Below are positions 13,319 to 48,993 of a DNA stretch of 64,000 nt, piece after piece (the first letter of the stretch is position 1; the number at the start of each line of letters is the position of its first letter). Source of the DNA: Candidatus Fermentithermobacillus carboniphilus (GTDB taxonomy: Bacteria; Bacillota; Sulfobacillia; Fermentithermobacillales; Fermentithermobacillaceae); contig CP062796.1 in the NCBI GenBank assembly GCA_018208355.1, positions 960,494 to 1,024,493 of the forward strand, written 5' to 3'. The notes beneath the pieces were generated by a model, which was not told the origin of the DNA, did not search any database, and saw only the letters and a list, made by a program, of their open reading frames with translations. A program made the position numbers and the translations under genes.

Positions 13319-13416
13319 GGTGCAAGTGCAACATGACTCCGTGCCACCACAGCAAAACTTGTATACAGCATTAGGAGGTGACCAGAATACCCAAAAATAC
13401 CTCAGGAGAAACCAAG

Positions 13417-13787: not shown

Positions 13788-13984
13788 TATCAGGGGGAAC
13801 AGCCACCAGATCGTTAGAAGCGCCTTTGCGGGAAAGTATGGCGCTCGAGGATCAGTTTGACAACGCGGATACTACCTGATAGGGTCGGTAGGGACCCGGG
13901 AGCTTCTTCGTGCGTCTACGTCAAAGGGTCAGGCCGCGCCGCCGATATACTACAAAGGTCAGGTCCGGGGAGTGATCTGTCTCG

Positions 13985-14560
13985 ATGGTCAGGAAAAAGT
14001 TCGTAATTACGCTGCTCTTAGCACCGTTGTTGGTTTCCGGGGTCCTGCTGGCCTGGATATCGAGGTTCGGGGCTTCAGCTTGTCCCGTAAAGTCGGATTG
14101 CATAATCGTCCTGGGGTGCAGGCTCTACGGCACCGTCCCCAGTCCTTTCCTTAGGGCTAGGCTGGATGAAGCGTTGAGGCTCTATAGGGAAGGGTATGCC
14201 CGTTACATCATCGTGTCCGGCGGACAAGGTCCCGGGGAGGATATCTCCGAAGCCCGGGCTATGAAGCAGTACATGGTTCAAAACGGTGTGGACGACACTT
14301 ATGTCATTGAAGAAGATAAATCAACGTCGACAGAAACGAACCTCAAGTTTTCCCTGGAAAAGATGAAAGAGCGGGGGCTTAAGACCGCCCTAGTTGTGTC
14401 AAACGATTACCATCTGGCAAGGGCTGCCGTCATCGCCCGGAGGATAGGCCTGGATGCCGGTTATTCAGGCGTGCGCCTGCCTCAGTACAGACGGTGGGAG
14501 ATAACCGGCCTACTTCGTGAGATACCTGCGCTCATTTATACCCTTCTGACGGTCTGGTAA
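13985..14560 (+). CDS. YdcF/SanA/ElyC-family (DUF218) protein with N-terminal membrane anchor
   Basis: CIIVLGCRLYG..PSPFLRARLDEALRLYREGYARYIIVSGGQG..EARAMKQY matches the DUF218 core. Confidence 0.75.
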   Translation: MVRKKFVITLLLAPLLVSGVLLAWISRFGASACPVKSDCIIVLGCRLYGTVPSPFLRARLDEALRLYREGYARYIIVSGGQGPGEDISEARAMKQYMVQNGVDDTYVIEEDKSTSTETNLKFSLEKMKERGLKTALVVSNDYHLARAAVIARRIGLDAGYSGVRLPQYRRWEITGLLREIPALIYTLLTVW

Positions 14561-22924: not shown

Positions 22925-23110
22925 CCCAATGTCTGATTTTGCGCTGCACCCGTTTTTTGGACATGGGTTTACATTCGACCTCGGTCAATCTGCCACCTCC
23001 CGGTCGTACGCAAGTTTTTGCGGCATCTCAAGCGGCGTTCTATACCCCAAACGTGTTATTGTCCAGGTCTTCTTGAACTCCTGGACCACGAATGCTTGGA
23101 TTCATCTTGA
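22925..23110 (-). mobile_element. Relic B of the same IS30-like element (inverted relative to relic A)
   Basis: The reverse complement reads ..QEFKKTWTITRLGYRTPLEM.. then, after a frameshift, GGRLTEVECKPMSKKRV. This parallels relic A (LEFKKCRITARLGCKTPVDV..GGRLSEVECVLKPVSKNSG). Confidence 0.5.
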
Positions 23111-23976
23111 CTGTCCAGGAGCCGCGTCGCGGCAATGGGATCAGCGCAATTGGGAATGAAGTACCTAAGAGCAAACGCAACTCCGCTCTCGTCGTTGCTC
23201 TTTGTAACAAATTTCGCCGCCTCCTTGGTGTTTGCGTCTGAATTACCCATGGCTACCGGGTAACCCACCGCCTTCAAGAGTTCTATGTCGCTCTCCGCAT
23301 CACCGATGGCCATAACATCTGAAAGTTCCAGGCCCAATATGGCGAGAACCTCATCCAAAGCACGCCTCTTTGAACACCCGGCTGCCACGACCTCGACAGT
23401 TTTGGGACCAGTAGACCATACATTGACCCACTTACCCCACCTATCATTGAGATAGGAGATAAGCGGTCCTTGCTCGCTGCGTTCAACTCTGATCCCTATC
23501 TTTCGGACCTTCAGATTCTCACACTTGACAAGAGCTGGAATGTCCAATGATGCTCTTGTCGAAACGTGGTTCGAATAGCCAGGTAGGGGAAATCGTGCGT
23601 CCCGAATAACCTCGCCTACAGTCGTGTATATGTGGTGATATCTGGGCGCGGACTTCAGGAATGTCAGAATCTCCATGCTGACCCCTTGATCTATGTGCAC
23701 GTCAATAACCGGTTCCGACCTTCCCGGTATCATCACCAGGGCGCCATTTGAACATATGAGGATCGGGCTGAAACCGAGCATATCCAGAACATCCTTAAAA
23801 AACTGTGGAATCCGGCCGGTTGCAATTGCTACCATAACCCCGGCCTCGTGAATCCGCAAAAGCTCTCGCGTGTCTTCCTCCGAGACCTGCCCCTGGCTGT
23901 TCAAGAGAGTCCCATCTAGGTCAACTACCACAAGCCTGACCACGTCTCTCACCGCTGAACTAACGATTTGAGCCAA
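23056..23976 (-). CDS. Cof-type HAD-IIB sugar phosphatase, with a C-terminal extension read from IS-relic DNA
   Basis: VVDLDGTLLNS (motif I), ATGR, AIGDAESDIELL (motif IV). Homology with the fragment at 10737 ends at RYF(I/T)P. The next 30 codons (NCADPIAATRLLDSQDESKHSWSRSSRRPGQ) lie in relic B. Confidence 0.8.
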   Translation of the reverse strand: MAQIVSSAVRDVVRLVVVDLDGTLLNSQGQVSEEDTRELLRIHEAGVMVAIATGRIPQFFKDVLDMLGFSPILICSNGALVMIPGRSEPVIDVHIDQGVSMEILTFLKSAPRYHHIYTTVGEVIRDARFPLPGYSNHVSTRASLDIPALVKCENLKVRKIGIRVERSEQGPLISYLNDRWGKWVNVWSTGPKTVEVVAAGCSKRRALDEVLAILGLELSDVMAIGDAESDIELLKAVGYPVAMGNSDANTKEAAKFVTKSNDESGVAFALRYFIPNCADPIAATRLLDSQDESKHSWSRSSRRPGQ

Positions 23977-24722
23977 GAAAGTCGTTCCACATACCTTCGC
24001 TCTATCTCCACCCTAAACGCTTCTTGCATTTCCTCCGCCTCATCAAGGTTCCCGCTGACCATAATCGGCGGAGTATCTCCCCGCTCCACAAGCTTTTCAA
24101 TTGCCGCCGCAATTACCGACCAAAGAATAGCGACCCCGGTGACAGTGGAAGTGGGACAGGCTTTCACCGGGAGCCCCTTGAACTCAAGGGCTGCGTCTCC
24201 AGGTACTCCCATGTTGTCCAACACGACATCGGCAATGTCATGTAGTTTCTTCCCGGAGGAGTGCCTCGAGGCCACCGCTTCGGCATGGGCAAGGGACGTG
24301 ATGGCAATGACTTTTACTCCTTTTTCCTTGAAAAGGAGCGCCATTTCGATCGGGCAGGCGTTCCTACCTGAATTGGAGACGATTATGGCCACATCCTCAG
24401 GTCTTACATCACAAGGATGAGAGTCCAGGAGCACCTTAGCCAAACCCGGTAACCTCTCAAGGGCAGAAGACTTCCCATACCCTTCGTGAAGCATTAGACA
24501 CGGTTCCAGTATAGGCGCAACCGCAAACAAACCGCCGGCTCGAGCGTATGCCTCTTCTGCAAGAATGTGAGAGTGACCCGTGCCGAAAATGTGCAATATG
24601 CCGCCTTTCCAAAGAGACTCTGCGACAATTTGGCCCGCTTCCTCGATCTTCGTGGCCTCCTTTTCACCTATAGTCTTCAGGATCGATATAACGACATCAA
24701 TAAAACGACTACCGCCCATCAT
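23949..24722 (-). CDS. SIS-domain protein of the UPF0309 type (putative phosphosugar isomerase/binding protein)
   Basis: IEEAGQIVAESLWKGGILHIFGTGHSHILAEEAYARAGGL..VSNSGRN. Start set at the ATG at 24722, after GGGAGG with 6-nt spacing. Confidence 0.7.
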   Translation of the reverse strand: MMGGSRFIDVVISILKTIGEKEATKIEEAGQIVAESLWKGGILHIFGTGHSHILAEEAYARAGGLFAVAPILEPCLMLHEGYGKSSALERLPGLAKVLLDSHPCDVRPEDVAIIVSNSGRNACPIEMALLFKEKGVKVIAITSLAHAEAVASRHSSGKKLHDIADVVLDNMGVPGDAALEFKGLPVKACPTSTVTGVAILWSVIAAAIEKLVERGDTPPIMVSGNLDEAEEMQEAFRVEIERRYVERLSWLKSLVQR

Positions 24723-24862
24723 CAGGTGCCTCCCATCGAAACCGGTGCCAGATTCAACATTCAAACCGGTTTATGCCGTTCCTGGAAAACATATAAGTGC
24801 TTCGCTGATGTGCCAAAACCCCCGTCGATGAAACTATCACCGGGAGAATCCTTGTCGGATTG

Positions 24863-25294
24863 TCAAGGAGTCCCAAGAGTTGGAGAGGTCTGTAACCGCG
24901 ACTTTACCTCTGAGCCTAGATCTTGGATGCTGGCCCGTCCGGCATTTATCGCGATATCTACGAGTTCTTGAGCCGACGCGCCTGCCCGTGCAGTAAAGAC
25001 CTCGAGGAGCATCGCCAAGTTAACTCCGGTTACAAGATGGAAACCCGAAAGCCCGGCCAGAAGACAAGCAGCATTACCGGGCGTCCCACCTTGTAGATCT
25101 GCGAAAATGATAAAACCATCTCCCTCATCCACACACTGAATAGCTTCTTGTATCTTCTGTTGCATATCTGATAGGCCCTCGCCTACTTGAAGACCAACCG
25201 CTTTGACCTGTCTTTGTTCCCCTAATATCATGAAAGCTGCTTCTAAGAGACTCTCGGCTAGACGACCATGGGATACAATGACGAGTCCTACCAC
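24863..25294 (-). CDS. PTS mannose-family EIIA component
   Basis: VGLVIVSHGRLAESLLEAA (phospho-His motif SHG). GTG at 25294 lies immediately after the nanE stop. Confidence 0.75.
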   Translation of the reverse strand: MVGLVIVSHGRLAESLLEAAFMILGEQRQVKAVGLQVGEGLSDMQQKIQEAIQCVDEGDGFIIFADLQGGTPGNAACLLAGLSGFHLVTGVNLAMLLEVFTARAGASAQELVDIAINAGRASIQDLGSEVKSRLQTSPTLGTP

Positions 25295-25296
25295 GT

Positions 25297-25977
25297 TTAT
25301 TTCAACCCCTTGCACTGCCGTCTTTGTATAAACTCAACATAACGCCGGGTGATCTCTCGTGGTCGTGTGATTGCGGTACCTACAACCACAGCGTAAGCTC
25401 CGCAATCCAACGCCTTTACAACCTGTTCCGGATACCAGTAACCGCCCTCCGCAATGACGGGGCAGGTCACACTTTGTACGATCCTTTCAAGGAGCCCGAA
25501 GTCAGGACCGTTTTTAGAGTCGCTCAAAGTAGTCGCAACGATATCTGCCCCTGCTTCGGCTGCAGCGATAGCATCGCTCAATGTGGCGCAATCTGCCATG
25601 ACAGGAACATTCAGCCTGTTATGACACGCGTCAATTATCTCCTCTACCCTATCTCCGAAAGGCTTTTCGCGCGTGGCGTGGGTGGCTACGATATTGGAGC
25701 CCGCGGCGACGATAGCTTCAGCGGCATCCACCGTTGGAGTGATCCATACTCTGCCCAGTTGGTCACGTTCCTTAAGTATACCTATGATGGGTAGACGTAC
25801 TGTCCTCCGAATGAGGGCGATGTCGTCAACCCCATTTGCACGTATACCAGAGGCACCTCCCAGTTCTGCGCTATACGCCATTGCTGCCATCAACACCGGT
25901 CCATGCAGAGGTTCTCCATCGTGGGCCTGACACGACACGATCAGCCCGCCCTTAAGTTTTTCGACGATCGGATACAT
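25297..25977 (-). CDS. nanE: N-acylmannosamine-6-phosphate 2-epimerase
   Basis: GLIVSCQAHDGEPLHGPVLMAAMAYSAELGGASGIRANG..LPIIGILKER is closely NanE-like. Length 226 aa. Confidence 0.85.
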   Translation of the reverse strand: MYPIVEKLKGGLIVSCQAHDGEPLHGPVLMAAMAYSAELGGASGIRANGVDDIALIRRTVRLPIIGILKERDQLGRVWITPTVDAAEAIVAAGSNIVATHATREKPFGDRVEEIIDACHNRLNVPVMADCATLSDAIAAAEAGADIVATTLSDSKNGPDFGLLERIVQSVTCPVIAEGGYWYPEQVVKALDCGAYAVVVGTAITRPREITRRYVEFIQRRQCKGLK

Positions 25978-26099
25978 GGAGGTCCCCTCTTTCGCCTGTT
26001 GGAATCTAACCCCTTCAAGTCCTGTCTTTGAGTCCGGTCAAACATCTAACGCTGGTTTACGTGCGCTCCGAGGTTCCCATCAGGGGTTCCCATCAGGAG

Positions 26100-27416
26100 T
26101 TACCATGAGGAGCTCTCATCAGATACAAGATCTTGCACCATCTCTTTGCCGACCTTGGCGATGATTTCTCCCGCATCAACACCGGTAAAAGTAACTCCAG
26201 CCTCATAGCCTTGCTCTCCATATACATCGGGAGTCAGTATATAGCCGACGTAGTCATTTGCGTATCCGGCAATAACGACCGTGGCCCGGTCGGTAGAATC
26301 TTTAATCTCTTTGCCTATCTCGTTAAACAGTTCTGCGGGGACTCCTACAACTACAAATGGCCCTATCCGAAGCGCCTGCATTTCGGTAACGATATCTTGG
26401 TCTCCCAGTAAGTCCTTCAGTAAGATAGCACGCTCTGCACCCTGGAGGGTGACCTCGGCAGTCCGAACAAGGTTTTCAGGAGCACCGCTTTCGCGAAGTC
26501 GTTTCAAATTCTCCCGCGCTTCTCTGAGCATAGCTTGGCAGACGTCATCCGGCGGAAACTTACGGACCGGAAGTGTGATCTCGCGGACCGCAGCACACAG
26601 CCGGTCATCATCTGACTCGCGTGCAGCCGAGGCTAGAGCAATAGCCTTCCCCGCTAATAGTTCACCCATCCTCCTGGCCTCCTCGAAAGTGGAGCCCCTC
26701 CTGGTATGACGAGTGCTCACATCCCCCGCAGCTCCTTGCAAGAACATGGGAGTACAACCGGGATAGACCCTGGTGAGAGATTCCTGCGTGAAACTGGGAT
26801 AATCACCACTTATCAGATAATTGGACGCGCTTAGGACGGTCGGATGGCACGTATAGTTCACCAGTATGCCCCGGACGTGGCCATTTTCCCCGGTTACCTT
26901 AAGCACTGTAACCCTGTCGTCAAAGGGTCCGTTTGGATCACGCCTGTTGCACCCAAGTCCCTTAAGATGCCCTGTTTCTACTCCGATCTTTGCAGGAGCG
27001 AGCTTCCTGTTGGCAGCCAGTATGGCTCCCGCTATCGACTCACAAAGGTTGAGAAAATAGGCCTTCTCCGCTTCGGTTGGCCGCTTAGTCCTTTTCACGG
27101 CGCTCCATCCACTCAGACGAGAGGCATTTGGACCTGAGTGTGTATGAGAAGCAGTTAGCATGATGTGATCCTCGGGGATATCGGTCAGACGAGAAACTTT
27201 TCCCCTAACGTACTTGGTAATCTGCCAGTCAATGCCGACAAGATCCGAAGTAACCAGACACACCTTGGTTTTTCCGTTTGAAACCACCATGGCCCTGGCA
27301 TAAAGGGGATTTGCGATACCCTCGCTGCCATGGTCGCGCTCTTCATAACCGGCAAGTTCGGCACCCACCGGAGGAGTAATGTCAACGGTCTGGAATCCTG
27401 CCCAAATAGCCATCAT
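26100..27416 (-). CDS. Neutral/alkaline ceramidase-like N-terminal-domain hydrolase (predicted amidase)
   Basis: AGFQTVDITPPVGAELAGY..PLYARAMVV..CLVTSDLVGI..TASHTHSGP resembles the bacterial neutral-ceramidase N-domain. Start at the ATG at 27416 or 27413, after AAGGAGG. Confidence 0.6.
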   Translation of the reverse strand: MMAIWAGFQTVDITPPVGAELAGYEERDHGSEGIANPLYARAMVVSNGKTKVCLVTSDLVGIDWQITKYVRGKVSRLTDIPEDHIMLTASHTHSGPNASRLSGWSAVKRTKRPTEAEKAYFLNLCESIAGAILAANRKLAPAKIGVETGHLKGLGCNRRDPNGPFDDRVTVLKVTGENGHVRGILVNYTCHPTVLSASNYLISGDYPSFTQESLTRVYPGCTPMFLQGAAGDVSTRHTRRGSTFEEARRMGELLAGKAIALASAARESDDDRLCAAVREITLPVRKFPPDDVCQAMLREARENLKRLRESGAPENLVRTAEVTLQGAERAILLKDLLGDQDIVTEMQALRIGPFVVVGVPAELFNEIGKEIKDSTDRATVVIAGYANDYVGYILTPDVYGEQGYEAGVTFTGVDAGEIIAKVGKEMVQDLVSDESSSW

Positions 27417-27433
27417 CAGCCCTCCTTGAAGTA

Positions 27434-28258
27434 TCACCGATCCTGTTGGGAAAATAGAGCAAGTAGACTTTTAACCGTAGCATTCACAGCGTCACGAGTG
27501 GCAGGTAGAAAGTCCGGATACCGGTATTTGTCCCTGGTCATTACGTCCTTGACAGCCAGAACAGCAGCCTGTGAGAGCCGCGTAAATATGCTGATCTTAT
27601 TCACACCTAGTGCAACCGCCTTTGCGTAATCGTCATCAGGAACTCCCGACCCACCATGCAAGGAAATATCAACCCGGCAGGATGAAGTGATCCGCCCGAG
27701 CCTCAAGAGATCCAACCTGGCCTCGCCGGCCGAGAGCCCATGGGTTGTCCCCACCGATACAGCCAATATATCGATCCCTGTACGGTTTACGAAATCTTCT
27801 ACCAGATCAGGATCAGTTAGCTCGCTCTCCTCCCTGCCCTTGCTCCCGATAGTCCCAAGAGGGGCTTCCAGGACGGCTCCATACGAATGCGCCATACGAA
27901 CAAGTTCAGCGGTCATACGCACTTTCTCCTCATAGTCCAGGCCCTTCCCATCATACATGACAGAAGGAAAACCGTTCCTGAGGGCGGTTTCAATTGAGTC
28001 GGGGGTCTGGGCATGGTCAAATTGTGCGGATACTGGAATACTCGCTCGTTCGGACCGGGACCGAACTGCCCAAAGAAATGTCTCCATGTCGATGAATTTT
28101 AGATGGCTCTCTGATAGGGCCACAATAATGGGCTGACCAAGTTCGTCCGCAGCTGAAACTATCCCATCAACAAACTCGATACAAACCGCGTTAAAAGACC
28201 CTACTGCTTTCTTTTGGGTTCTTGCTTCTTTCAAAAGCGGTTCAAGAGGACTTAGCAT
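27434..28258 (-). CDS. Class II ketose-bisphosphate aldolase (tagatose/fructose-1,6-bisphosphate aldolase, KbaY/GatY-like)
   Basis: LLKEARTQKKAVGSFNAV..IIVALSES..FDHAQT..SLHGGSG are class II FBA/TBA motifs. Confidence 0.8.
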   Translation of the reverse strand: MLSPLEPLLKEARTQKKAVGSFNAVCIEFVDGIVSAADELGQPIIVALSESHLKFIDMETFLWAVRSRSERASIPVSAQFDHAQTPDSIETALRNGFPSVMYDGKGLDYEEKVRMTAELVRMAHSYGAVLEAPLGTIGSKGREESELTDPDLVEDFVNRTGIDILAVSVGTTHGLSAGEARLDLLRLGRITSSCRVDISLHGGSGVPDDDYAKAVALGVNKISIFTRLSQAAVLAVKDVMTRDKYRYPDFLPATRDAVNATVKSLLALFSQQDR

Positions 28259-28267
28259 ATTATCTAT

Positions 28268-29092
28268 TCATCTCCGATTCAGCTGTTCTTGAAGGTATTC
28301 ATACGCGACTTTGCCCGAAACTTTGTCCTTGAAGATCATGCTTATGGCTCGCGTAATCGCTTCAGGGTTCTCATGTTCGAATATGTTCCGGCCCACAGAA
28401 CATCCTATCGCTCCCGCTTCGCGGGCTTGGGCCATGCGGTCCAAGAGTTCTTCATCGGAGATCCGCGGTCCACCCGCAAGAACTACCGGAACCTGCGTCG
28501 CTTCAATAATCTCGGCCATATCCTTGATGCTTCCGGGCCAATTCACCTTAATGATGTCAGCGCCCATTTCCGCGCATAGACGTGCGTTCCGCTTCAAGTA
28601 GTCGGCGCCGTATTCGGTTTCTAACGTATCGAGCGATTGATAGGCCGTAGGATACTCCGCCTCGGCGATGAGAGGCATTCCCCAGAAATCGCACTTCTCT
28701 CCTACGTCGGATAGGTACCGAATCATTTCGGGTTCGTAATCCTGAGCAAGTGCCACGTAAACAGTTACCGCGTCAGCACCGAGCCTCAACGCCTCTTCTA
28801 CCGAACTTATAGGAGTGATCTTTGGCCCCGCAGGCCTTCCCGCAGCGCAAGCAGTCATCATAAGCGCAAGTGAGGTATCTGGCTTAAATTCCTCAACTGT
28901 CTTATAGGCAAACCCGCGACCTAACATAAGCACGTTCGCACCACCACTAATGGCCTGCTTAACTCGGGTGCGGGTATCCATAAGACCTCGCAGAAGAGTC
29001 GGAGATGTCATGCCGTGATCGATCGCAAAAATGATGCACGAGCCTGTATCCTGCTGAATCAGCCTCTTCATTCGTATTGTCTTCCCTAACAC
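28268..29092 (-). CDS. Class I aldolase of the DhnA/FbaB/LsrF family
   Basis: IFAIDHGMT..NVLMLGRG..DAVTVYVAL..ADIIKVNWPG (Schiff-base Lys region)..VVLAGGP..GCSVGRNIF. Confidence 0.7.
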   Translation of the reverse strand: MLGKTIRMKRLIQQDTGSCIIFAIDHGMTSPTLLRGLMDTRTRVKQAISGGANVLMLGRGFAYKTVEEFKPDTSLALMMTACAAGRPAGPKITPISSVEEALRLGADAVTVYVALAQDYEPEMIRYLSDVGEKCDFWGMPLIAEAEYPTAYQSLDTLETEYGADYLKRNARLCAEMGADIIKVNWPGSIKDMAEIIEATQVPVVLAGGPRISDEELLDRMAQAREAGAIGCSVGRNIFEHENPEAITRAISMIFKDKVSGKVAYEYLQEQLNRR

Positions 29093-29184
29093 AGTACCCT
29101 ACCTCCTACTTGACGATTGTTAAAAGATGTGTAGTTTTTGAATAGGCAGCACCAAATCCCCAAGATCTGTCAATAGAGGATTTG

Positions 29185-29952
29185 TCAGTTGAATTCTTCT
29201 CCCAATCGAACCTTTCTCAGGGTTAAAGGCGAAAGCATCCTTGCGGCCGCCTTGTCTACAATCATCGCTGAGTTCCTATGAGTCCGGATCACTGTCATGG
29301 GTACTTCTTCGGTAATCGGCCCTTCAACAACTCTCCTAACAATCTCCGCTTTGTCCTTGCCGGAGACAAGAATCACTATTCTTCGCGCTTCCATGATTGT
29401 GGCAATCCCCATGGTAATGCCGGTCTTCGGAACTTCTTCAAGTGAACTGTACCATCTGGCGTTCGCTTTTCTGGTTTTCTCGTGGATGACGACCATTCTA
29501 GTCCTGGATGAAAATTCGGAACCTGGTTCGTTATAACCAAGGTGTCCATTGTGTCCCAAGCCATCTATGACAAGATCGATTCCGCCGACGTCTCTTATTT
29601 TGTCTTCGTACTCCTGAGCAAACCTTTCGGCATCGTCAGGCATCGGATCCAAATAGAACCAATTATCCGGGTTTAGATTTGTCTTGCTGCTGAAATGTTC
29701 TCGGATATACGAGTAATGCGTATGGGGATCAGACCGCGGGGCATAGACCGTATCAATATCGAACAATCGCATTCTCGAAAAGTCCACACGCCCCTTCCGA
29801 TACGCATCCACAAGCCGCGAATACATGCCGATCGGGGTTCCGCCTGCGGGGAGGGTTATAACGGCGTCCGGCTTTTCCTGCAGAAGGCTTATGATAAGTT
29901 CTGCAGAAACGCATGAGAGTTCTTCGTAGTCATTTACTATTGTTAAACGCAA
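29185..29952 (-). CDS. nagB: Glucosamine/galactosamine-6-phosphate deaminase-isomerase (NagB/AgaI family)
   Basis: ITLPAGGTPIGMY..DLVIDGLGHNGHLGYNEPGS. TTG start after AGGAAGGTG. Confidence 0.8.
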   Translation of the reverse strand: MRLTIVNDYEELSCVSAELIISLLQEKPDAVITLPAGGTPIGMYSRLVDAYRKGRVDFSRMRLFDIDTVYAPRSDPHTHYSYIREHFSSKTNLNPDNWFYLDPMPDDAERFAQEYEDKIRDVGGIDLVIDGLGHNGHLGYNEPGSEFSSRTRMVVIHEKTRKANARWYSSLEEVPKTGITMGIATIMEARRIVILVSGKDKAEIVRRVVEGPITEEVPMTVIRTHRNSAMIVDKAAARMLSPLTLRKVRLGEEFN

Positions 29953-30008
29953 TCTGATTCACCTTCCTACCCGGTAATTGCCAGCAAGCATCGTTCTTTT
30001 GGGGTCTA

Positions 30009-30077
30009 GGGGCAACACCTTCCTTCACCGGCTTCGGGGTAAGACCTTCCTTTACGGGTTTCGGGGCAACACCGGGG
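30009..30077 (+). repeat. 2.5 tandem copies of a 27-nt unit (ggggYaaSaccttccttYacSggYttc) in the IICD-nagB intercistronic gap
   Basis: Units at 30009..30035, 30036..30062 and partial 30063..30077, read directly. On the minus strand they encode Pro/Lys-rich PKPVKEG repeats without a start codon. Confidence 0.7.
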
Positions 30078-30186
30078 CTGGAGGTCCAGGAGTAGCCACA
30101 CAGTCCGTCAGATCCGAGACCATGGATGGTTTCGGGGTAACGGCTGGCGGTCCAGGAATTGGACCCCCAACCCCCGTACCTTCTAT

Positions 30187-31761
30187 TTACTTAAAGAACC
30201 CAACGAGAGCCCCGAGAATACCCAGGATAAGGAGGGTAAAAAGGACCTTGGTGGGTGATGTGCCCTTCTTCAAGACCCTGTAACAGACCCAGGTCAACGC
30301 CAGCGGCAACAGATTTGGTAGTATCGCATCAAGGACGGATTGGAGTCCCACACTAGCCTGCCCGATTTGTAGAGTGGCTTTTGTGGAAATGCTGACCATG
30401 GTCGCAGTCATGGCACCCAGAACCATCATCCCGAGAACGCTGAGCGACTCAGTAACACGCTTAATCCCGCTCTTAATTGTGGCCAAGAAGGAAACGCCGA
30501 GTTCGTATCCCTTGACGAATGGATAATAACGAGTCCAAAGATGGGGGATGTTGAAAAGAACAAGAGATACGATAGGTCCAATAATATTCCCACCCTGAGC
30601 CAATGCAATGCCAATGCCTAGACAGATAGGCCTTATAGTCATCCAGAATAGGGAGTCGCCGACCCCTGCTAGAGGTCCCATGGTTGCGACTTTAAAGGCA
30701 CTGATGGATTCAGGTGCCACTTCCCCTCTGACCACCCCTTCCTCCATGGCGAGAGAAATCCCGAGGATGGGCGCCGCCATGTAAGGCTGGGTATTGAAAA
30801 ACTCAAGGTTTCTCTTTACTGCAGCCTTGAGCTTTTCAGGGTCGTTCCTGTAGAATTTCTTGAGGGCCGGTAAGACTACGAATGCCCAACCCAGGTTCTG
30901 CATACGTTCAAAGTTCCAGGCCGACTGTAGGAAGAACTGCCTCCAAACCAGCTTCCTCAGTTCCGGCTTGGACAGGAACCTGGAGGAACTGTCGGTAGAT
31001 GCACCAACCTCTCCAGCGGTGAGAGGTTCATCCCGGTACAGGAAATAGTCATGCAGAAACGCGGCAGCAGCCCCCAGGATGGCAACACCGACAAGAGGGA
31101 CTTTCATGAAGGTCGCCGCAACAAACCCCACAAAGAAGTAAGGGAAGAGTTTGGGAATTCCGACCATGTTGAGAAGCATTCCGAAACCCAGAGCAGGCAA
31201 CATCCCACCGGCAGCCTGCAGTCCCACAGTGATAACGGATGGTATATTGCTCACTACCGATTTCACCGCATCCACACCGAAATAGATTGCCGGGTACACC
31301 ACCAGGAAAGACCGTAAGAACATAAGGATAATTCCTGCCACGTTGGCCCAGACTACAGCATCGACTTTCCCTTCGTCGATTTTGCGTTCCGCCCAGTGTG
31401 TCAGACCAGAGTTGATGGTACGAACGAATATATCCAGCGTTTGGGCGGCGATTGCGACAGGCACGGCAATTGCGAGAGCCACTTCTGCTCCTTGGCCGGT
31501 AAGAATCGCAAAGGAGGTGGCCAACACCGAGCCAATCACAACATCAGGGGGAACTGCGGCCCCTATTCCCACTACCCCCATCCAGATAAGCTGAAGGGTA
31601 ATGCCGATTGTGATACCCATCTGGACATTGCCTAACGCAATACCGACTATTGTTGAGGCCACAAGGGGATTGGAGAAACCGAATTGCCCTACAGACAGCC
31701 TCTCCACTCCTAGTATTCCCGCGATTAAGGCAAGCAGTAACGCCGTCCCAGCCATCTTCAA
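30187..31761 (-). CDS. Fused PTS mannose-family EIIC-EIID membrane component
   Basis: The N-terminal about 240 aa is IIC-like and hydrophobic. The C-terminal half carries the IID hallmark QSAWNFERMQNLGWAFVVLP. Single 524-aa ORF. Confidence 0.8.
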   Translation of the reverse strand: MKMAGTALLLALIAGILGVERLSVGQFGFSNPLVASTIVGIALGNVQMGITIGITLQLIWMGVVGIGAAVPPDVVIGSVLATSFAILTGQGAEVALAIAVPVAIAAQTLDIFVRTINSGLTHWAERKIDEGKVDAVVWANVAGIILMFLRSFLVVYPAIYFGVDAVKSVVSNIPSVITVGLQAAGGMLPALGFGMLLNMVGIPKLFPYFFVGFVAATFMKVPLVGVAILGAAAAFLHDYFLYRDEPLTAGEVGASTDSSSRFLSKPELRKLVWRQFFLQSAWNFERMQNLGWAFVVLPALKKFYRNDPEKLKAAVKRNLEFFNTQPYMAAPILGISLAMEEGVVRGEVAPESISAFKVATMGPLAGVGDSLFWMTIRPICLGIGIALAQGGNIIGPIVSLVLFNIPHLWTRYYPFVKGYELGVSFLATIKSGIKRVTESLSVLGMMVLGAMTATMVSISTKATLQIGQASVGLQSVLDAILPNLLPLALTWVCYRVLKKGTSPTKVLFTLLILGILGALVGFFK

Positions 31762-32246
31762 CCCTCCTGTCTTGAGAGTAAGTTTTGGATAAGAGTCTTT
31801 GGATCTGATGGAAACATCCGAACTTCAACTTCGACGCCGCTTTGGATGATTTGCCAAAAATCCGACTCTTCTTGGGGAGAAACTGATACCGCTTTTGATA
31901 TCTGCCTCCTTTCTGGGGTGAATTTCATGCCACCCACGTTGATGCTGTGGAGTGGCACACCGGCTCGAATCAGCATGAGTGGCTCTCGTGGTCCCGTGAA
32001 GATCAGCATGAGTCGACGTTTATCGAATTTCCCCTGCTTAAAGTCTGCTACAAACTTGTCTACTGACAGGGCTTGAACATCTACCCCTGGCGGTGCGGCG
32101 ATAGACAAGACAGTAGATTGTATTGGATCTTTTGCGATTGCATCATTTACTATTACGATTTGGTCTACGTTATGGGACCTCGTCCACCCAACCGTAACCT
32201 GACCATGAATGAGTCGGTCGTCGATCCGCGCTAACACGATCCCCAA
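31758..32246 (-). CDS. PTS mannose-family EIIB component
   Basis: MGIVLARIDDRLIHGQVTVGW signature. ATGA overlap with the IICD gene. Confidence 0.85.
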   Translation of the reverse strand: MGIVLARIDDRLIHGQVTVGWTRSHNVDQIVIVNDAIAKDPIQSTVLSIAAPPGVDVQALSVDKFVADFKQGKFDKRRLMLIFTGPREPLMLIRAGVPLHSINVGGMKFTPERRQISKAVSVSPQEESDFWQIIQSGVEVEVRMFPSDPKTLIQNLLSRQEG

Positions 32247-32329: not shown

Positions 32330-33055
32330 TTAGGAAATAGCTCTCCGCCGTACGATGAGGCTAATCTGTTCGGTATCAAGATAGTCTTTAGATACTGCAA
32401 TTACATCGTCGTTAATGTCATAAACCATTTCGTGCGATAAGACGATTGGCCGTCCTTTGCATCTGGGCATATACTTGGCAATACTTGCAGGCGTTACGAT
32501 GGCCTTTAGCCGAGATTCTGTGTGATGCGGATTATGTCCGGTCTTTTGTAGCGCTTCGAAGAACGATTGTGATAGCTGATCCCGGTCGATTGGTCCTCCG
32601 AGATAAGCAAGCGGAGCCAAGTCTATTGAATAAGCTACCGGTACGTCGTTTAGAAGACGAATCCTCTCCAATTCTACGGCAACCTCGCCTGGCCAGCGGA
32701 ACTGTTGCCTCATCTCTTCCGTCAGCGGAATCTCACTGATTTTGATCAGCTTAGTATCGGCAGTTCCACCTGAAGCCCTCAAGATATTGCTTAGGCCGGT
32801 CAGCACATCGAACGTGTACAGGAGGGAGTCTGCATTACTCGATATGAACGTACCGATACCATGCCTTGACCGTACTATGCCTTCCCTTTCTAGCAGTCTC
32901 AGAGCTTCCCGAACCGTGGTCCTCGAGACCTGATATTGGTCAGCCATAGCGACCTCACTGGGAAGACGGGCTAAACCATTTCCTAGTGTCTTGGCGTAAT
33001 CTATTCTGATTTTTTCTGCTATCTGTACATATAGAGGTCGTCTATCTCTGGCCAA
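32330..33055 (-). CDS. GntR-family (HutC/UTRA subfamily) transcriptional regulator
   Basis: LPSEVAMADQYQVSRTTVREALRLLEREGIVRSRHGIGTFI winged helix-turn-helix plus a C-terminal UTRA-like domain. Confidence 0.85.
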   Translation of the reverse strand: MARDRRPLYVQIAEKIRIDYAKTLGNGLARLPSEVAMADQYQVSRTTVREALRLLEREGIVRSRHGIGTFISSNADSLLYTFDVLTGLSNILRASGGTADTKLIKISEIPLTEEMRQQFRWPGEVAVELERIRLLNDVPVAYSIDLAPLAYLGGPIDRDQLSQSFFEALQKTGHNPHHTESRLKAIVTPASIAKYMPRCKGRPIVLSHEMVYDINDDVIAVSKDYLDTEQISLIVRRRAIS

Positions 33056-34582
33056 TTAAATGTCCTCCTTTAGATTAAACCCTAATTCGAACAACTTGTG
33101 TGATAGGGCTGCAATGCTCCTGTAAAACTCACAGTAGACCGCGTAGTAACGTTCATATAGGCTTGCAACGTCCTCTCGAGGCAAAAAGCACCTTTCCCGC
33201 TTAACCATGGCGGTGACACCATCAACCGGTGTGTCAAAGAGCCCGATACCCGTGAACCCCATGATCGCCGCACCAAGAGCCGATGCATCAGCCACACGTA
33301 GACGATGTACCGGTTGATGTAAAACGTCAGCCTTGATTTGAAGCCACCTGTCGCTTTTCGAACCACCTCCAGCCGCTCGCACCTCACGGACAGCCACACC
33401 GGTGGTCCTACAGAAGTGCTCCGCAATCAGCCTGAGTTCGTAAGTGATTCCTTCGATGAGGCCTCTAACAAACATCCCTCTTGTAGTTGAAAGCCTTAAA
33501 CCGACAATTGCCCCTAGTGACCTGGGATCATGTAGCGGAGCACCTGCCCCCGCAAAATGTGGTAACACCAACAATCCAGACAAACTCTCCGGCATCTCAT
33601 TAAGGAGCACGTCATATGGGTCTACCCCTGATGTATCAGGCGGCAGCCCTCCGAACATAAAGTTATCTCGAAACCACCTGAGCACGCTACCGCCTGAAGG
33701 GTTCGTGATCGTATACACGAACCCGTCGCCTGTTAAGCTCGGATTTGCGGGGTAACTCGTAGTTGGGAGACGGGTTTTACTATAAAAACTGGCGCTTTCC
33801 ACAGTCCCCGTTCCTATACCCATTATTCCCTCCTCTGTAACCCCACACCCCAACGCCGAACAAGCCTGATCGAATCCACCGGTTACCACAGGAACATTCG
33901 ACATCGCCTCAAGTTCCGGCACAAGTTCCGAGCTCAGGCCGGCCACTATTGTACCTGGCCTGACGACTTCGGGTAGCAGGTCGTGCCGAACCTCTAGGGC
34001 GTCGATGATTCGGTCATACCAGGAGTCCCTGTTAAGATCGAAACACATGAGCCGTGCAGCAGAAGAAGTTGAGCATACATACTTTCCGGTCAGCCGGCCG
34101 ATTATGAAGTCCTCCCACGTGGCAAACTTAGTCGTCCTTGAATAAAGTTCAGGCATGTTATGCTTAAACCAAACAATCCTATTGATGCCATACTTCGGCG
34201 CAGGCGGTAGACCGGTAGCAGAATGAATCTCCCCCGGGTCCATTTTAGTGAGGAGCGCATCAAGTTCCTCTTTGCCGCGAACATCACTCGACATTATCAC
34301 GTTGTACAGGGCCTGATTTCCGCACAGCGGCATGATCTCATCGCCGGAAACCGATACCGCTATGCTGGCCGGTTTTCCGAATCTCGGGACTACCTGCGAG
34401 GCCACCTGCCCAAGCCCTGACACAACGGCATTCCAAACATCCTCTGGATTTAGTTCGACCCACCCATTGCGAGGAAAAACATACCGATACTCGCGTCTGA
34501 CCGTTGAAAGCACATCGCCCTGTTCAGTGACAGCCAGCACTTTACAAGAGGAGGTGCCTATGTCCAGCCCAATCGACCACAT
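33056..34582 (-). CDS. FGGY-family carbohydrate kinase (xylulokinase/ketose kinase-like)
   Basis: MWSIGLDIGTSSCKVLAV N-terminal ATPase motif, and the C-terminal GGGSKSDRWLQIKADV motif. Confidence 0.85.
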   Translation of the reverse strand: MWSIGLDIGTSSCKVLAVTEQGDVLSTVRREYRYVFPRNGWVELNPEDVWNAVVSGLGQVASQVVPRFGKPASIAVSVSGDEIMPLCGNQALYNVIMSSDVRGKEELDALLTKMDPGEIHSATGLPPAPKYGINRIVWFKHNMPELYSRTTKFATWEDFIIGRLTGKYVCSTSSAARLMCFDLNRDSWYDRIIDALEVRHDLLPEVVRPGTIVAGLSSELVPELEAMSNVPVVTGGFDQACSALGCGVTEEGIMGIGTGTVESASFYSKTRLPTTSYPANPSLTGDGFVYTITNPSGGSVLRWFRDNFMFGGLPPDTSGVDPYDVLLNEMPESLSGLLVLPHFAGAGAPLHDPRSLGAIVGLRLSTTRGMFVRGLIEGITYELRLIAEHFCRTTGVAVREVRAAGGGSKSDRWLQIKADVLHQPVHRLRVADASALGAAIMGFTGIGLFDTPVDGVTAMVKRERCFLPREDVASLYERYYAVYCEFYRSIAALSHKLFELGFNLKEDI

Positions 34583-35639: not shown

Positions 35640-37100
35640 TTAGGCAGCATAGAATATTTCTTTCGTTTTCTCATCGGGCGGCGCACTTAGATATGTGCCT
35701 ATGAGCATGAAAACCAACGACACTGCTGTTCCCAGAACACCGGGCCAAAGCCCGTAGGGCCAGTTGGAAAGAGACTTGAACTGTTGCCACCCTAAATAGT
35801 ACCAGTACAGCGATGAAATGAGACCCGAGTACATCGCAGCCAGAGCTCCTTGCCTGGTAGCTCTAGGCCACCAAGCTGCGCAGAGGATCGGAACTGTCAG
35901 GCTGGCTGCCATAACATTGAAGGAGAAGGCAACGAGCCACTGCACCGCATCGATAGGCCTTATCGCCAAAAGAATCGCGGCTACACCGAGAACGACTGTG
36001 GTTATACGTCCCACCTTGAGCTGCTGCTCGTCACTGGCTTTAGGGTTAATCAATGGTACATAAAGATCACGAGTTGCCGCCGCCGAGCAAAGGAGAAGCA
36101 CCGAGTCAACCGTAGACATAATAGCAGCTAGCACGGCAGACAGGACAACCCCACCGAAAACAGGGTGAAGAAGGTTGGCTGCCAAGGTAGGCACGAGAGA
36201 ATCTGCAACTTTGAGGTCGGGTAGCAGAACCCTACCGGCAAGGCCGACAACCCCCACAGATGCAAAGATTATAGTCTGGAAAACAATCGAATAACCAAGT
36301 GCAGCACGGAGCGTCTTCATGTCTTTGGCAATGATGAAGCGGACCACGGCAGCCGCGGATCCTCCGATTTGCAGCACCGACCAAGTTATCATATTGCAGA
36401 CAGCCCAAGTGCCGGTAACAAGTCCCGTTAGTTTGATGAGCCTTGGATCGATAGCAGCCAAGTTCTGGTGCAGAGCAGCCATTCCCCCGGCCCTGGAAAG
36501 GCTGGTGAATGCCAGAACGACCAAACCAACTATCATAATAAGACCTTGAACCAAGTCAGTCCACGCCACAGCGAACATGCCGCCTGTCCAGGTGTAAACA
36601 ATAATTACAATGCCTGCTACCACCATACCAACTAGATAGTCCAAACCTAAAGCAACCTTCAGAATCTCTCCGCAAGCTTTGAGCTGCCCCACCATTAGTG
36701 GGATATAGAAAATGAGCATTAAGAACGCATAGAAGAACCTGGCGTGCCTTCCATACCTTGCTTCAAAAATGTCGCCATAGGTATAGGCGTTGATGCGCTC
36801 GGCAATTTTGCGCATGCGCTCTCCGATTGAGAGGAAAGTGAACCATGGTGCGGCAGTCGAGGCAATGGAGACTGGAATGTAGTTGTAACCCAGTTTCCAC
36901 ACGGTAGCAGGGCTACCGATTGCTGTTCCGGCACTCATCTGGGTCGCAGAATACGAAAACCCGGTAACGGCAGCGTTTGTGCTACGGCCTGTCGTATAGT
37001 ACTCGTCTGTTCCGGTCACCTTTTTCGAAAAGTACCAACCTAGCGCAAGCATACCTATGAGGTAGAGTGCAAGAACAACCGAATACGTAAGGGTGATCAC
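35640..37100 (-). CDS. Sodium:solute symporter family (SSF) transporter
   Basis: 486 aa, about 13 TM helices, SSF-like N-terminus (YYTTGRS..). ATGA overlap with the small upstream membrane ORF. Confidence 0.8.
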   Translation of the reverse strand: MITLTYSVVLALYLIGMLALGWYFSKKVTGTDEYYTTGRSTNAAVTGFSYSATQMSAGTAIGSPATVWKLGYNYIPVSIASTAAPWFTFLSIGERMRKIAERINAYTYGDIFEARYGRHARFFYAFLMLIFYIPLMVGQLKACGEILKVALGLDYLVGMVVAGIVIIVYTWTGGMFAVAWTDLVQGLIMIVGLVVLAFTSLSRAGGMAALHQNLAAIDPRLIKLTGLVTGTWAVCNMITWSVLQIGGSAAAVVRFIIAKDMKTLRAALGYSIVFQTIIFASVGVVGLAGRVLLPDLKVADSLVPTLAANLLHPVFGGVVLSAVLAAIMSTVDSVLLLCSAAATRDLYVPLINPKASDEQQLKVGRITTVVLGVAAILLAIRPIDAVQWLVAFSFNVMAASLTVPILCAAWWPRATRQGALAAMYSGLISSLYWYYLGWQQFKSLSNWPYGLWPGVLGTAVSLVFMLIGTYLSAPPDEKTKEIFYAA

Positions 37101-37339
37101 TTGGATTCCCCCCTCTTGTCCTCTTCCCTATTTTGTCTGTAGATGAAAATGAACGAGGTTACTATAAGGATCACATAGCTCAGCCACGTCACATAGAAAG
37201 TATTCCAGCCGATTCCCCAGGGTCCCTCACCAGAAGTAACAAAATTCGCGACAATCAGGGACAGCAAGAAGAGTGCCATTCCGAGAAACCTAAGATACGG
37301 GACTCTAATCCATTTCCCATCCTTGGACGGTGCTCCCAT
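37097..37339 (-). CDS. Small two-TM membrane protein (YhdT/DUF997-like symporter accessory subunit)
   Basis: 80 aa, two hydrophobic helices, translationally coupled to the SSF gene. This arrangement is typical of PanF/PutP-type systems. Confidence 0.55.
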   Translation of the reverse strand: MGAPSKDGKWIRVPYLRFLGMALFLLSLIVANFVTSGEGPWGIGWNTFYVTWLSYVILIVTSFIFIYRQNREEDKRGESK

Positions 37340-37358
37340 TTGAATCCTCCTTTCTGGA

Positions 37359-38492
37359 TTAAAATTCTTGGAGAATCCTGAACAACAGGCCGATACGCTG
37401 CGGGAGAGTGCTGACCAAGATGTGTTCGTGAACTGCGTGACTACCGTCTCCGACTGCTCCTAGGCCATCCAGTGTAGGAACTCCGAGGTTGGCTGTGAAG
37501 TTGCCATCACTCCCGGCTCCGGTCGAAGCTTCAGGCAAGTCGAATCCGAGCTCTCGTGCCAAAATCTTGGCCCTCGAGTATAGTTCTGCGGTCTTTTCTG
37601 TCCGGACCATGGGTGGTCTCGTCATCCCACCTGTCACTTCAAGAGTAATACCGGGTCGGGTTGGCTTGAGACCTAGTATGACCGATTCCACTGTTTTCAT
37701 AGAGTCATTATCCGGTACTCTGACATCGATCTTTGCCGATGCTTCAGCTGCCACTACATTGGACCGGGTGCCTCCAGATATGACTCCGACATTTACAGTG
37801 GTACCAGTCTCGTAGTTTGTGAGGCCGTGCAAAGTCAGGATGTGACGGGCCAATTCCTCAATAGCACTTACTCCACGTTCGGGGTCCGAACCAGAATGAG
37901 CAGAGATACCTTTAACCTTAAGTTCAAAAGTTCCCTGACCCTTCCTTGCGGTTTTCAGAGCACCCCCGGGAGCGCTGGGTTCCAGGACAAGCACGTACTT
38001 GCTCTTTCTGGCTTCATTCTCGATGAGCAGTCTCGACGACGGGCTTCCGATTTCCTCGTCAGAGTTGCAGATGATGACAATACGTTTCTTGGGAGAAACT
38101 CCGAAATGCTTGAAAGCTTTGATAACTTCTACGGTGTAAAGGAAACCCGCTTTCATGTCGTAGATACCGGGCCCATATGCTTTATCTCCTTCCACCCTAA
38201 ACGGGCGACGGGCAACCTCTCCAACAGGCCAGACGGTATCCATATGACACAGGATAAGAGCTTGATCCTCGCCATCTCCGAAGGTCACCTTGAGGTTGTC
38301 ACCCTGCTGACCTCCCGAGAAGACTTCCACAGCGGCGCCTAGTTCCCGGTATACGTCAGCCAGGAAGCTGCCAAAACGGTCGACTGCCGCCTTGTCTGTA
38401 GAAGGCGACTCGTGCTCAACCAAGGATTTGGCAAATGAGAGCATTTCCCTAGTACGGTTTTCAAAGTAGGTCAGCAACACAGAACTATTCAA
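37359..38492 (-). CDS. M20-family metallopeptidase/deacylase (carboxypeptidase G2/ArgE-like)
   Basis: LILCHMDTVWP, GPGIYDMKAG, NSDEEIGSP, GISAHSG, AVHEHI are M20 metal-ligand and catalytic motifs. Confidence 0.8.
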   Translation of the reverse strand: MNSSVLLTYFENRTREMLSFAKSLVEHESPSTDKAAVDRFGSFLADVYRELGAAVEVFSGGQQGDNLKVTFGDGEDQALILCHMDTVWPVGEVARRPFRVEGDKAYGPGIYDMKAGFLYTVEVIKAFKHFGVSPKKRIVIICNSDEEIGSPSSRLLIENEARKSKYVLVLEPSAPGGALKTARKGQGTFELKVKGISAHSGSDPERGVSAIEELARHILTLHGLTNYETGTTVNVGVISGGTRSNVVAAEASAKIDVRVPDNDSMKTVESVILGLKPTRPGITLEVTGGMTRPPMVRTEKTAELYSRAKILARELGFDLPEASTGAGSDGNFTANLGVPTLDGLGAVGDGSHAVHEHILVSTLPQRIGLLFRILQEF

Positions 38493-38515
38493 TATCGTGT
38501 CTCCTTTCCGAACCT

Positions 38516-39685: not shown

Positions 39686-39724
39686 ACAAAACACCCCCTT
39701 GTGTCGATTGCAATAAATCACAGA

Positions 39725-48975: not shown

Positions 48976-48993
48976 CGAAAGGAGGATGATTTT

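Follow-up and report, generated by a model that had tools for sequence, protein, structure and literature searches.

Why should a gene for a ceramidase-like protein lie within an operon for amino-sugar catabolism, and which bond would its product cut? The question arises from the window (the whole 64-kb stretch of DNA analyzed here), in which positions 26100..27416 of the minus strand encode a short, catalytic-domain-only member of the neutral ceramidase family of zinc amidases, surrounded by genes for a sugar phosphotransferase system (PTS) and for enzymes of amino-sugar phosphates. The original prediction had offered two answers: either the protein replaces the amino-sugar deacetylase NagA/AgaA, to which it is not orthologous, or it acts on another N-acyl group of an amino sugar.

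The ceramidase-like protein and its active site

The predicted resemblance to the N-terminal domain of ceramidases was borne out. The protein matched the Pfam model Ceramidase_alk (PF04734) over two stretches with an E value of 1.3e-32 (113.6 bits, cut-off 32.1), and the neutral ceramidases 2zws (E 3e-16) and 4wgk (E 1e-13) in the PDB. A structure model (AF2, pLDDT 94.9) predicted a ceramidase-like fold, and a Foldseek search with this model returned 2zws, 2zxc, and 4wgk (E 1e-34 to 1e-33, TMq 0.76–0.79) and no credible match besides neutral ceramidases. When aligned with PaCD, the ceramidase of P. aeruginosa, residues H91, H191, E362, and Y392 correspond to the zinc ligands H97, H204, E411, and Y448, and H93, R158, and Y404 to the catalytic residues H99, R160, and Y460; the roles of these zinc-binding and catalytic residues have been described for human ASAH2 (PMC6952831). 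Among 86 homologs, every one of these positions is invariant or nearly so. Judged by its sequence, the product is an amidase of the ceramidase family whose active site is intact.

The protein does not reach the neutral ceramidase equivalog NF041649 (62.1 bits, cut-off 1200), and scans with Pfam and NCBIfam models yielded ceramidase models only, with no membership in the amidohydrolase family of NagA. The C-terminal Ig-like domain is absent, as the protein ends at 438 amino acids and its sole Pfam match is to the N-terminal domain. A secretion signal is absent as well, the N-terminus beginning directly at the first conserved strand, and signal peptides are also missing from the 86 homologs, with one possible exception in a long-branch paralog from Acidobacteria (L084:7600-8979). 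Lacking a signal peptide and the C-terminal domain, the protein is therefore predicted to be cytoplasmic.

The length of 438 amino acids results from the likely start at ATG 27416, which lies 7–8 nt after the motif AAGGAGG and coincides with the point at which the homologs start. The longer open reading frame of 445 codons begins at GTG 27437. Translational coupling to the upstream aldolase gene through an ATGA-type overlap at 27434..27437 had been proposed; the overlap actually reads GTGA and is probably not a real start. The gene is preceded by a ribosome-binding site of its own, and the likely start codon follows the aldolase stop at a distance of 17 nt.

The active site serine, S234, is followed by a cluster of arginines (R236, R239, R240, and R249). 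At least three of these four positions are basic in all 54 PTS-linked members of the family, and at most two in all nine symporter-linked members from Acidobacteria, where the motif reads GSEE. The loss of the cluster in the symporter-linked clade would fit a role as phosphate anchor; because the correlation rests on essentially one clade, it amounts to a single evolutionary event.

The operon and its relatives

The gene lies inside a 12-gene operon on the minus strand, the content of which had largely been predicted correctly: profile matches identified a mannose-family PTS, a NagB-family protein, a class II aldolase, a NanE-like protein, an SIS protein, a kinase, and a GntR regulator, and they added two genes missing from the earlier list, which encode a further aldolase, of the DeoC/LacD type, and a HAD protein of the Cof type. 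Read in the direction of transcription, the operon starts with an FGGY-family sugar kinase (33056..34582; Pfam FGGY_N and FGGY_C; best NCBIfam match XylB, 254 bits, below cut-off), which is kept in the orthologous operon L011 (70% identity), and a GntR/UTRA regulator of the HutC type (32330..33055; Pfam GntR and UTRA). The mannose-family PTS follows with EIIB (31758..32246; Pfam PTSIIB_sorb, E 5.8e-48) and a fused EIIC–EIID permease (30187..31761; Pfam EII-Sor and EIID-AGA in one 524-amino acid frame), a fusion also found in L011, L016, L020, L036, L039, L042, L055, and L078. A NagB-family glucosamine-6-P deaminase-like protein (29185..29952; Pfam Glucosamine_iso; TIGR00502, 236.2 bits, cut-off 236.9) precedes two aldolases, one of the DeoC/LacD-type class I family, ADH-synthase/LsrF-like (28268..29092; Pfam DeoC, E 1.3e-37; PRK07226, 228 bits, cut-off 241), and one of the class II ketose-1,6-bisphosphate aldolase family (27434..28258; Pfam F_bP_aldolase, E 3e-67; best NCBIfam matches all below equivalog cut-offs). 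Downstream of the ceramidase-like gene lie those for a NanE-like putative N-acylmannosamine-6-P 2-epimerase (25297..25977; Pfam NanE, E 2.2e-48; PRK01130, 242.7 bits, cut-off 189), the mannose-family EIIA (24863..25315; Pfam EIIA-man, E 4.6e-27), a UPF0309/SIS_2 protein resembling the sugar-phosphate enzymes NagS and MurQ (23949..24764; PRK02947, 294 bits; PDB 9eol, E 4e-46, and 3cvj, E 2e-51), and a Cof-type HAD-IIB sugar-phosphate phosphatase (23056..23976; Pfam Hydrolase_3, E 7e-54; TIGR00099, 145.7 bits, cut-off 137). The amidase, the UPF0309 protein, and the PTS thus share one strand from 23949 to 32246. Terminator-like sites between the operon genes did not exceed chance, and in a scan of 22.8–35 kb the counts of promoters and terminators were not above those of shuffled sequence, with a weak promoter-like site before the IIB gene.

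That the operon has no gene for NagA/AgaA was likewise upheld, as no match to TIGR00221 was found anywhere in the window. An amidohydrolase encoded at 38516-39721 is Xaa-Pro-dipeptidase-like.

The ceramidase-like family comprises 1,515 representatives at 50% identity, and literature searches found no published function for it. Cultured strains that carry it include Holdemania filiformis DSM 12042, Wukongibacter baidiensis DY30321, and Clostridium oceanicum JCM 1407. The neighborhoods of 85 loci were scanned within 7 kb, and the homologs were arranged in a quick tree. The recurrent partners are the NagS/MurQ-like UPF0309 protein, encoded in 51 of the 85 loci and often directly adjacent (20–40 nt gap), the mannose-family PTS (any component in 52 loci, IIC/D and IIB in 47 each), and NagA (44 loci). 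Loci devoid of the PTS have a BadF-type kinase instead; L014 has an ABC importer and no kinase. A NanE-like neighbor is present in 8/85 loci, seven of them in the window's clade of Firmicutes (14 rows of the tree) and one outside it, in a member of Chloroflexota (L091). In Anaerolineae, two small conserved open reading frames (u147 and u201) adjoin the gene; they encode membrane proteins that belong to no family and are absent from the window.

The UPF0309 partner, NagA, and competing explanations

UPF0309 is the sister clade of MurQ, and NagS and MurQ each act at C2 and C3 of N-acetylhexosamine-6-P; NagS orthologs have been reported only in Streptomycetaceae (PMC12680351). The UPF0309 protein of the operon keeps all of the NagS residues with which it was compared (H53, S54, R64, S91, E94, S119, S121, D179, and N228; PMC12680351). 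The predicted complex of this protein with the amidase scored 0.01 (mark 0.32), which speaks neither for nor against an interaction. The UPF0309 gene is not near the ceramidase-like gene in L011, the closest orthologous operon, or in the Erysipelotrichaceae subclade, and its coupling to the amidase is therefore not obligatory in the window's clade.

One explanation assigns the two proteins to consecutive steps of a dehydration route. UPF0309 would convert an N-acetylhexosamine-6-P into a 2,3-unsaturated enamide of the 6P-chromogen-I type, and the ceramidase-like protein, as a dedicated enamide deacylase, would release a 2-keto-3-deoxy sugar phosphate and ammonia, followed by a DeoC-type aldolase or a GFO oxidoreductase. 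Besides the conserved NagS residues (S91 among them), the recurrence of DeoC/LacD-type aldolases (in the window, L011, L070, L072, and L073) and the presence of GFO oxidoreductases in 30 loci speak for such a route, and exactly this chemistry, NagS followed by a deacetylase, exists in Streptomyces (PMC12680351). There, however, the product is toxic and deacetylation is already performed by NagA, which is also found in most of the clusters considered here; furthermore, distant UPF0309 homologs of Clostridium and Paenibacillus showed no activity toward GlcNAc-6-P (PMC12680351), and L011 contains the amidase without UPF0309. On balance, the dehydration route appears rather improbable.

The first option of the original prediction, a non-orthologous replacement of NagA/AgaA that removes the 2-N-acetyl group from GlcNAc-6-P, ManNAc-6-P, or GalNAc-6-P, held only in its premise: an apparently intact ceramidase-family amidase does occur in an amino-sugar PTS operon without nagA. 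The same gap exists in L011, L020, and L023, where the ceramidase-like protein is again the only amidase encoded, as would be expected of a replacement, and PTS, NanE, amidase, and NagB would together complete a ManNAc route. Replacement itself is not supported, since the two enzymes coexist. A canonical nagA is present in the source genome, ∼1 Mb away (1970115-1971281; 331.6 bits, cut-off 225.65), as the single NagA match above cut-off in that genome, and the L020 genome also carries nagA (379.6 bits). In E. coli, the aga amino-sugar PTS operon can rely on a nagA that lies at another site and acts in trans (PMC3668189). NagA scored above cut-off in 43 of the 50 other carrier genomes, so the two distributions are not complementary. 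True nagA is even part of the same operon in L012, L014, L017–L019, and most loci from Anaerolineae and Bacillota; it adjoins the ceramidase-like gene in orthologous operons at 43–46% identity (318 and 377 bits), and of 37 loci with full flanks, 24 have it at a distance of no more than 7 kb, as have 20 of the 25 with the PTS. We regard replacement of NagA as quite unlikely, and annotators should not infer a replacement enzyme when an operon lacks nagA. Given this near-constant coexistence, the ceramidase-like enzyme probably cleaves another amide bond of a phosphorylated amino sugar; the 2-N-acetyl group that GlcNAc-6-P ordinarily carries is most likely not its target.

That the protein is a genuine lipid amidase (a ceramidase or N-acyl-lipid hydrolase) with an incidental position in a sugar operon is hardly credible: ceramidases are its only solved or characterized relatives, but the distance to the equivalog cut-off (62 versus 1200 bits), the missing C-terminal domain and signal peptide, the conserved arginine cluster beside the active site, and a linkage to amino-sugar genes that is maintained in Chloroflexota, Bacillota, Acidobacteriota, and archaea all argue against it.

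Proposed function and comparison with known systems

The explanation we favor, and consider probable, is that a cytoplasmic zinc amidase made of the neutral ceramidase catalytic domain acts on a phosphorylated amino-sugar intermediate and not on ceramide. The mannose-family PTS would import a modified N-acyl hexosamine and phosphorylate it at C6. The amidase could then hold the sugar phosphate via R236, R239, R240, and R249, as the correlated change in the symporter-linked clade suggests, and, by analogy with ceramidases, hydrolyze the amide with a zinc-activated water, the metal presumably being held by the aligned ligands H91, H191, E362, and Y392 and catalysis assisted by H93, R158, and Y404. 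The NanE-like epimerase and the UPF0309 enzyme may act on this sugar phosphate as well, at C2 and C3, and the operon's NagB-like deaminase, assisted in trans by the only NagA of the genome, would finish the product. These steps leave both aldolases, the FGGY kinase, and the HAD phosphatase without a part, which counts against the explanation.

As to the bond itself, a tentative first choice is a second amide on the C3 substituent of the sugar, which would mirror the order of MurNAc-peptide amidase and MurQ etherase. Almost as likely is an N-acyl group that NagA refuses, either because it is not acetyl or because the sugar has another configuration. The second option of the original prediction, with some other N-acyl or amide group on an amino sugar as the target, comes close to this reading.

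The source genome already encodes the canonical MurNAc pathway: its MurQ is fused to a β-lactamase-fold domain (L099:6095-8179), which we take to be AmiE-like, and its gene lies next to those for NamZ, a BadF kinase, and a GH3 enzyme. A peptidoglycan-derived substrate is therefore not required here, and a simple replacement of MurQ by UPF0309, with MurNAc or MurNAc-peptide as the substrate, does not apply to this genome, which has MurQ. The same enzyme is present in 24 of the 50 carrier genomes searched and absent from all 13 Chloroflexota (Anaerolineae-type) among them, 11 of which have UPF0309 in the cluster (two paralogs in seven); for Anaerolineae, replacement of MurQ by UPF0309 is suggestive. 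It is conceivable, if speculative, that the short amidase and UPF0309 form a widespread and hitherto undescribed pathway for the breakdown of a modified amino sugar that bears an additional amide and, at C3, a leaving group, for example, a peptidoglycan-derived muramyl-amide or muramyl-peptide or another N-acyl amino sugar, and that this route stands in for the MurQ pathway in Anaerolineae, where the cluster occurs without a canonical MurQ. Identifying the substrate would assign a function to the ceramidase-like family and to obscure UPF0309 proteins outside Streptomyces, reveal the cargo of a common class of mannose-type PTS, and possibly disclose a new way in which anaerobes of the gut, of digesters, and of sediments live on the debris of cell walls or glycans.

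To our knowledge, the ceramidase fold has so far been described solely for secreted enzymes that cleave lipid amides; the truncated version predicted here is cytoplasmic, makes up about 1,500 clusters at 50% identity, and forms part of operons for the uptake of amino sugars. With the neutral ceramidases of P. aeruginosa (CerN; 2ZWS/2ZXC) and human (ASAH2; 4WGK), it has in common the fold of the catalytic domain (Foldseek E 1e-34, TMq 0.77), the zinc ligands, the catalytic His, Arg, and Tyr, and the serine motif GDVS. It differs from them in identity (only 18–21%), in length (438 versus about 650–780 amino acids), in lacking the Ig-like domain and signal peptide, in the additional arginines that cluster behind the serine motif, and in a genomic context of amino-sugar catabolism instead of lipids. 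NagA and AgaA (amidohydrolase superfamily, CE9) likewise hydrolyze amides in a metal-dependent manner within amino-sugar PTS operons, but their fold is unrelated, and they co-occur with the ceramidase-like amidase instead of the two replacing each other. Streptomyces NagS (SCO4393, PDB 9eol) is a homolog of the operon's SIS_2 protein, with which it shares all catalytic residues; in contrast to the operon studied here, neither a ceramidase-like partner nor PTS linkage is described for the NagS/NagA route in the NagS paper (PMC12680351). A parallel in logic is the MurNAc-peptide amidase/MurQ system of peptidoglycan recycling (murQ-murP-amiE-nagZ-namZ in B. subtilis), in which an amidase and an SIS-fold eliminase acting at C2/C3 of an N-acetylhexosamine-6-P derivative precede NagA. 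The ceramidase-like operon differs from it in the fold of the amidase, the SIS subfamily, and the PTS family (of the mannose instead of the glucose type), and the source genome contains both systems.

A ceramidase-fold protein in an amino-sugar PTS operon

The protein encoded at 26100-27416 (minus strand) is a member of the ceramidase superfamily by profile, residues and fold. The resemblance to ceramidases noticed in the original prediction was confirmed by the profile search (Pfam Ceramidase_alk, E 1.3e-32), and two solved neutral ceramidases match at E 3e-16 and 1e-13. Residues H91, H93, R158, H191, E362, Y392 and Y404 align with H97, H99, R160, H204, E411, Y448 and Y460 of the Pseudomonas aeruginosa ceramidase, that is, with its zinc ligands and catalytic residues (for the human counterparts and their roles, see PMC6952831). 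These positions are invariant or near-invariant in 45 database homologues and in 86 homologues from genomic loci. An AlphaFold2 model built on the alignment (mean pLDDT 94.9) predicted the ceramidase fold; its sole credible structural neighbours were 2zws, 2zxc and 4wgk (E about 1e-34, TM 0.77 on the query).

The gene lies among 12 tightly packed genes on the minus strand, at 23.0-34.6 kb of the window. On one side of it are encoded an FGGY kinase (33056-34582), a GntR/UTRA regulator (32330-33055), PTS IIB (31758-32246), a fused PTS IIC-IID permease (one protein of 524 aa; 30187-31761), a NagB-family protein (29185-29952; TIGR00502 236.2 bits versus a cut-off of 236.9), a DeoC/LacD-type aldolase (28268-29092) and a class II ketose-bisphosphate aldolase (27434-28258). 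On the other side are a NanE-like epimerase (25297-25977), PTS EIIA (24863-25315), a SIS_2 protein of family UPF0309 (23949-24764; E 4e-46 to NagS, SCO4393 of Streptomyces, PDB 9eol) and a Cof-type HAD (23056-23976). The FGGY kinase and both aldolases are also kept in locus L011, which holds a 70%-identity orthologue. The IIC-IID fusion recurs in L011, L016, L020, L036, L039, L042, L055 and L078, archaeal loci among them. The predicted extent of the gene is right, as AAGGAGG precedes ATG 27416 at the usual spacing and homologues share this start point. For the same reasons, the overlap at 27434..27437 taken as a sign of translational coupling, which reads GTGA and is formed by an alternative start (GTG 27437) and the aldolase stop, is probably not the true start.

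The window also contains a second mannose-family PTS locus, at 48961-55683 (IIB, IIC, IID, SorC-type regulator, IIA). This locus additionally encodes a Zn-dependent alcohol dehydrogenase and a further DeoC/LacD aldolase, and on its opposite strand there is another NagB-like gene (54847-55683; TIGR00502 218 bits, below cut-off).

Genomic neighbourhood and the UPF0309 partner

All ORFs within at most 7 kb of a homologue were clustered for 85 loci. A UPF0309-type SIS_2 protein was found in 51 of these, often as two paralogues, mannose-family PTS components in 47 (IIC/IID), 47 (IIB) and 36 (IIA), and NagA in 44. GFO/IDH/MocA oxidoreductases (30), MtnX-like HADs (25) and GlmS-isomerase-like SIS proteins (15) followed. 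NanE was encoded in only 8, 7 of them within the 14-member Firmicutes clade into which the window protein falls (SH-aLRT 99, quick maximum-likelihood tree) and in which the gene usually has NanE beside it. Of the 37 loci whose flanks were complete, 25 contained PTS, 25 UPF0309 and 24 NagA; 20 of the 25 PTS loci encoded NagA as well.

Transport is by PTS in most clusters, and a few contain a BadF-type kinase. In the orthologous cluster of L014, an ABC importer (9861-13686) takes the place of the PTS; it consists of an SBP_bac_1/6/8 binding protein, a TOBE_2 ATPase and two permeases fused into one. We take it, as a lead, to resemble the AfuABC sugar-phosphate importers; this cluster lacks a kinase. 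Acidobacteria clusters rely on sodium:solute symporters and a TonB-dependent receptor. This PTS-free variant (L047, L053, L076, L085, L093 and L094, Acidobacteriota) comprises RpiR, the TonB-dependent receptor, the ceramidase-like gene, a GFO oxidoreductase, SSF symporters, an FAA-hydrolase-family protein and a GHL10/DUF4015 glycosidase-like protein.

NagS, phylogenetically a sister to the MurNAc-6-P etherase MurQ, dehydrates GlcNAc-6-P and ManNAc-6-P via C2 and C3 chemistry; distant homologues from Clostridium and Paenibacillus did not use GlcNAc-6-P (PMC12680351). The UPF0309 protein of the window keeps every residue known to be important in NagS (H53, S54, R64, S91, E94, S119, S121, D179 and N228), and only the S91 position varies among 79 UPF0309 proteins of the loci. 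Where two paralogues occur, one is Gly-type and one Glu-type at this position, the Glu-type gene being 20-40 nt from the amidase gene; single copies carry Ser, Thr or Pro. In L028, L040, L061 and some 20 further loci from Anaerolineae, the Gly-type gene is located between IID and IIA, and the Glu-type gene precedes the ceramidase-like gene by 20-40 nt. NanE was found only in loci with at most one UPF0309 copy.

Substrate and relation to NagA

In the reading that we favor, the protein hydrolyzes an amide of a phosphorylated amino-sugar derivative, working alongside NagA. R236, R239, R240 and R249 come after S234 of the GDVS motif, the motif that presumably contains Ser354. In 54 of 54 PTS-linked homologues, three or all four of these positions are basic. 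In all nine symporter-linked Acidobacteria proteins the number is two or fewer, and the motif is usually GSEE, as it is in the PTS-free variant described above. This pattern fits a putative phosphate anchor for a PTS product, with the caveat that the change is essentially one clade-level event.

As to the bond cut, a second amide on a C3 substituent is a tentative first choice. The amidase would remove this amide, leaving UPF0309 to catalyze a MurQ-like elimination and rehydration at C3, and NanE, NagA and NagB would complete the route. A precedent is found in the same genome (L099:6095-8179; C1:530094-532178), where a single 694-aa ORF joins MurQ (TIGR00274 302.7 bits) to a beta-lactamase-fold domain at the C-terminus and is flanked by genes for NamZ, a BadF-type kinase and GH3 (NagZ-like). 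We read this domain as presumably AmiE-like, and the fusion looks like a cytoplasmic amidase-etherase for peptidoglycan recycling. As the MurQ system and the UPF0309 module are both present, the substrate in the window genome is probably something other than that of the MurQ pathway. None of the 13 Chloroflexota (Anaerolineae-type) carrier genomes searched (2 complete) contained canonical MurQ, which would be consistent with UPF0309 acting in a MurQ-like way there.

Only slightly less likely, the bond may belong to an N-acyl group not accepted by NagA. In the ceramidase-like PTS operons L020 (Tepidanaerobacteraceae MAG; 10335-11702) and L023 (Holdemania filiformis; 12720-14315), the gene for a bifunctional GlmU-like nucleotidyltransferase/acetyltransferase paralogue directly follows UPF0309 (Arch_glmU 173 and 140 bits, below cut-off), which hints at re-acetylation of a freed amine. 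An enamide arising from NagS-like dehydration is an unlikely target.

About as unlikely is a non-orthologous replacement of NagA/AgaA, raised as one option in the original prediction for an operon that lacks NagA. This lack is real and extends to the entire window; the amidohydrolase at 38516-39721 is Xaa-Pro-dipeptidase-like (288 bits, below cut-off). (With an SSF symporter and an M20 metallohydrolase, it forms a separate peptide or amide-utilization unit at 35640-39721, upstream on the same strand.) The replacement keeps some probability because, in the subclade of the window, L011, L020 and L023, the operons encode no amide hydrolase besides the amidase. However, canonical nagA is present in the same genome (1970115-1971281, 331.6 bits), adjoining an LD-carboxypeptidase and other hydrolases with no PTS beside it; sister operons (43-46% identity) contain nagA, NanE and the amidase all together; NagA scores above cut-off in 43 of 50 other carrier genomes; and in E. 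coli nagA at another site stands in for agaA (PMC3668189). Therefore, nagA and the amidase do not show the complementary distribution that replacement predicts. The nagA genes of L012 and L014 are genuine (318 and 377 bits versus a cut-off of 226), and the L020 genome has NagA, while its operon is laid out as in the window, likewise without nagA. Of the seven carriers below cut-off, three had very weak matches only (a 0.6-Mb MAG included) and four had NagA-like genes that fell just short of the cut-off, at about 150-206 bits.

Comparison with neutral ceramidases

An exhaustive search (E <= 1e-30) recovered 1,515 representatives of 50%-identity clusters, mostly of 415-450 aa and named, if at all, only "neutral ceramidase N-terminal domain-containing protein"; a literature search found no published function for this family. 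The target is unrelated to NagA. Its score, architecture and location also set it apart from neutral ceramidases proper: it reaches 62 bits against the equivalog cut-off of 1200, has 438 residues instead of about 650-780, lacks the C-terminal domain, and carries no signal peptide, like all other family members save one divergent Acidobacteria paralogue. We infer that a known fold and chemistry are here applied to substrates of a new class and in a new cellular role.
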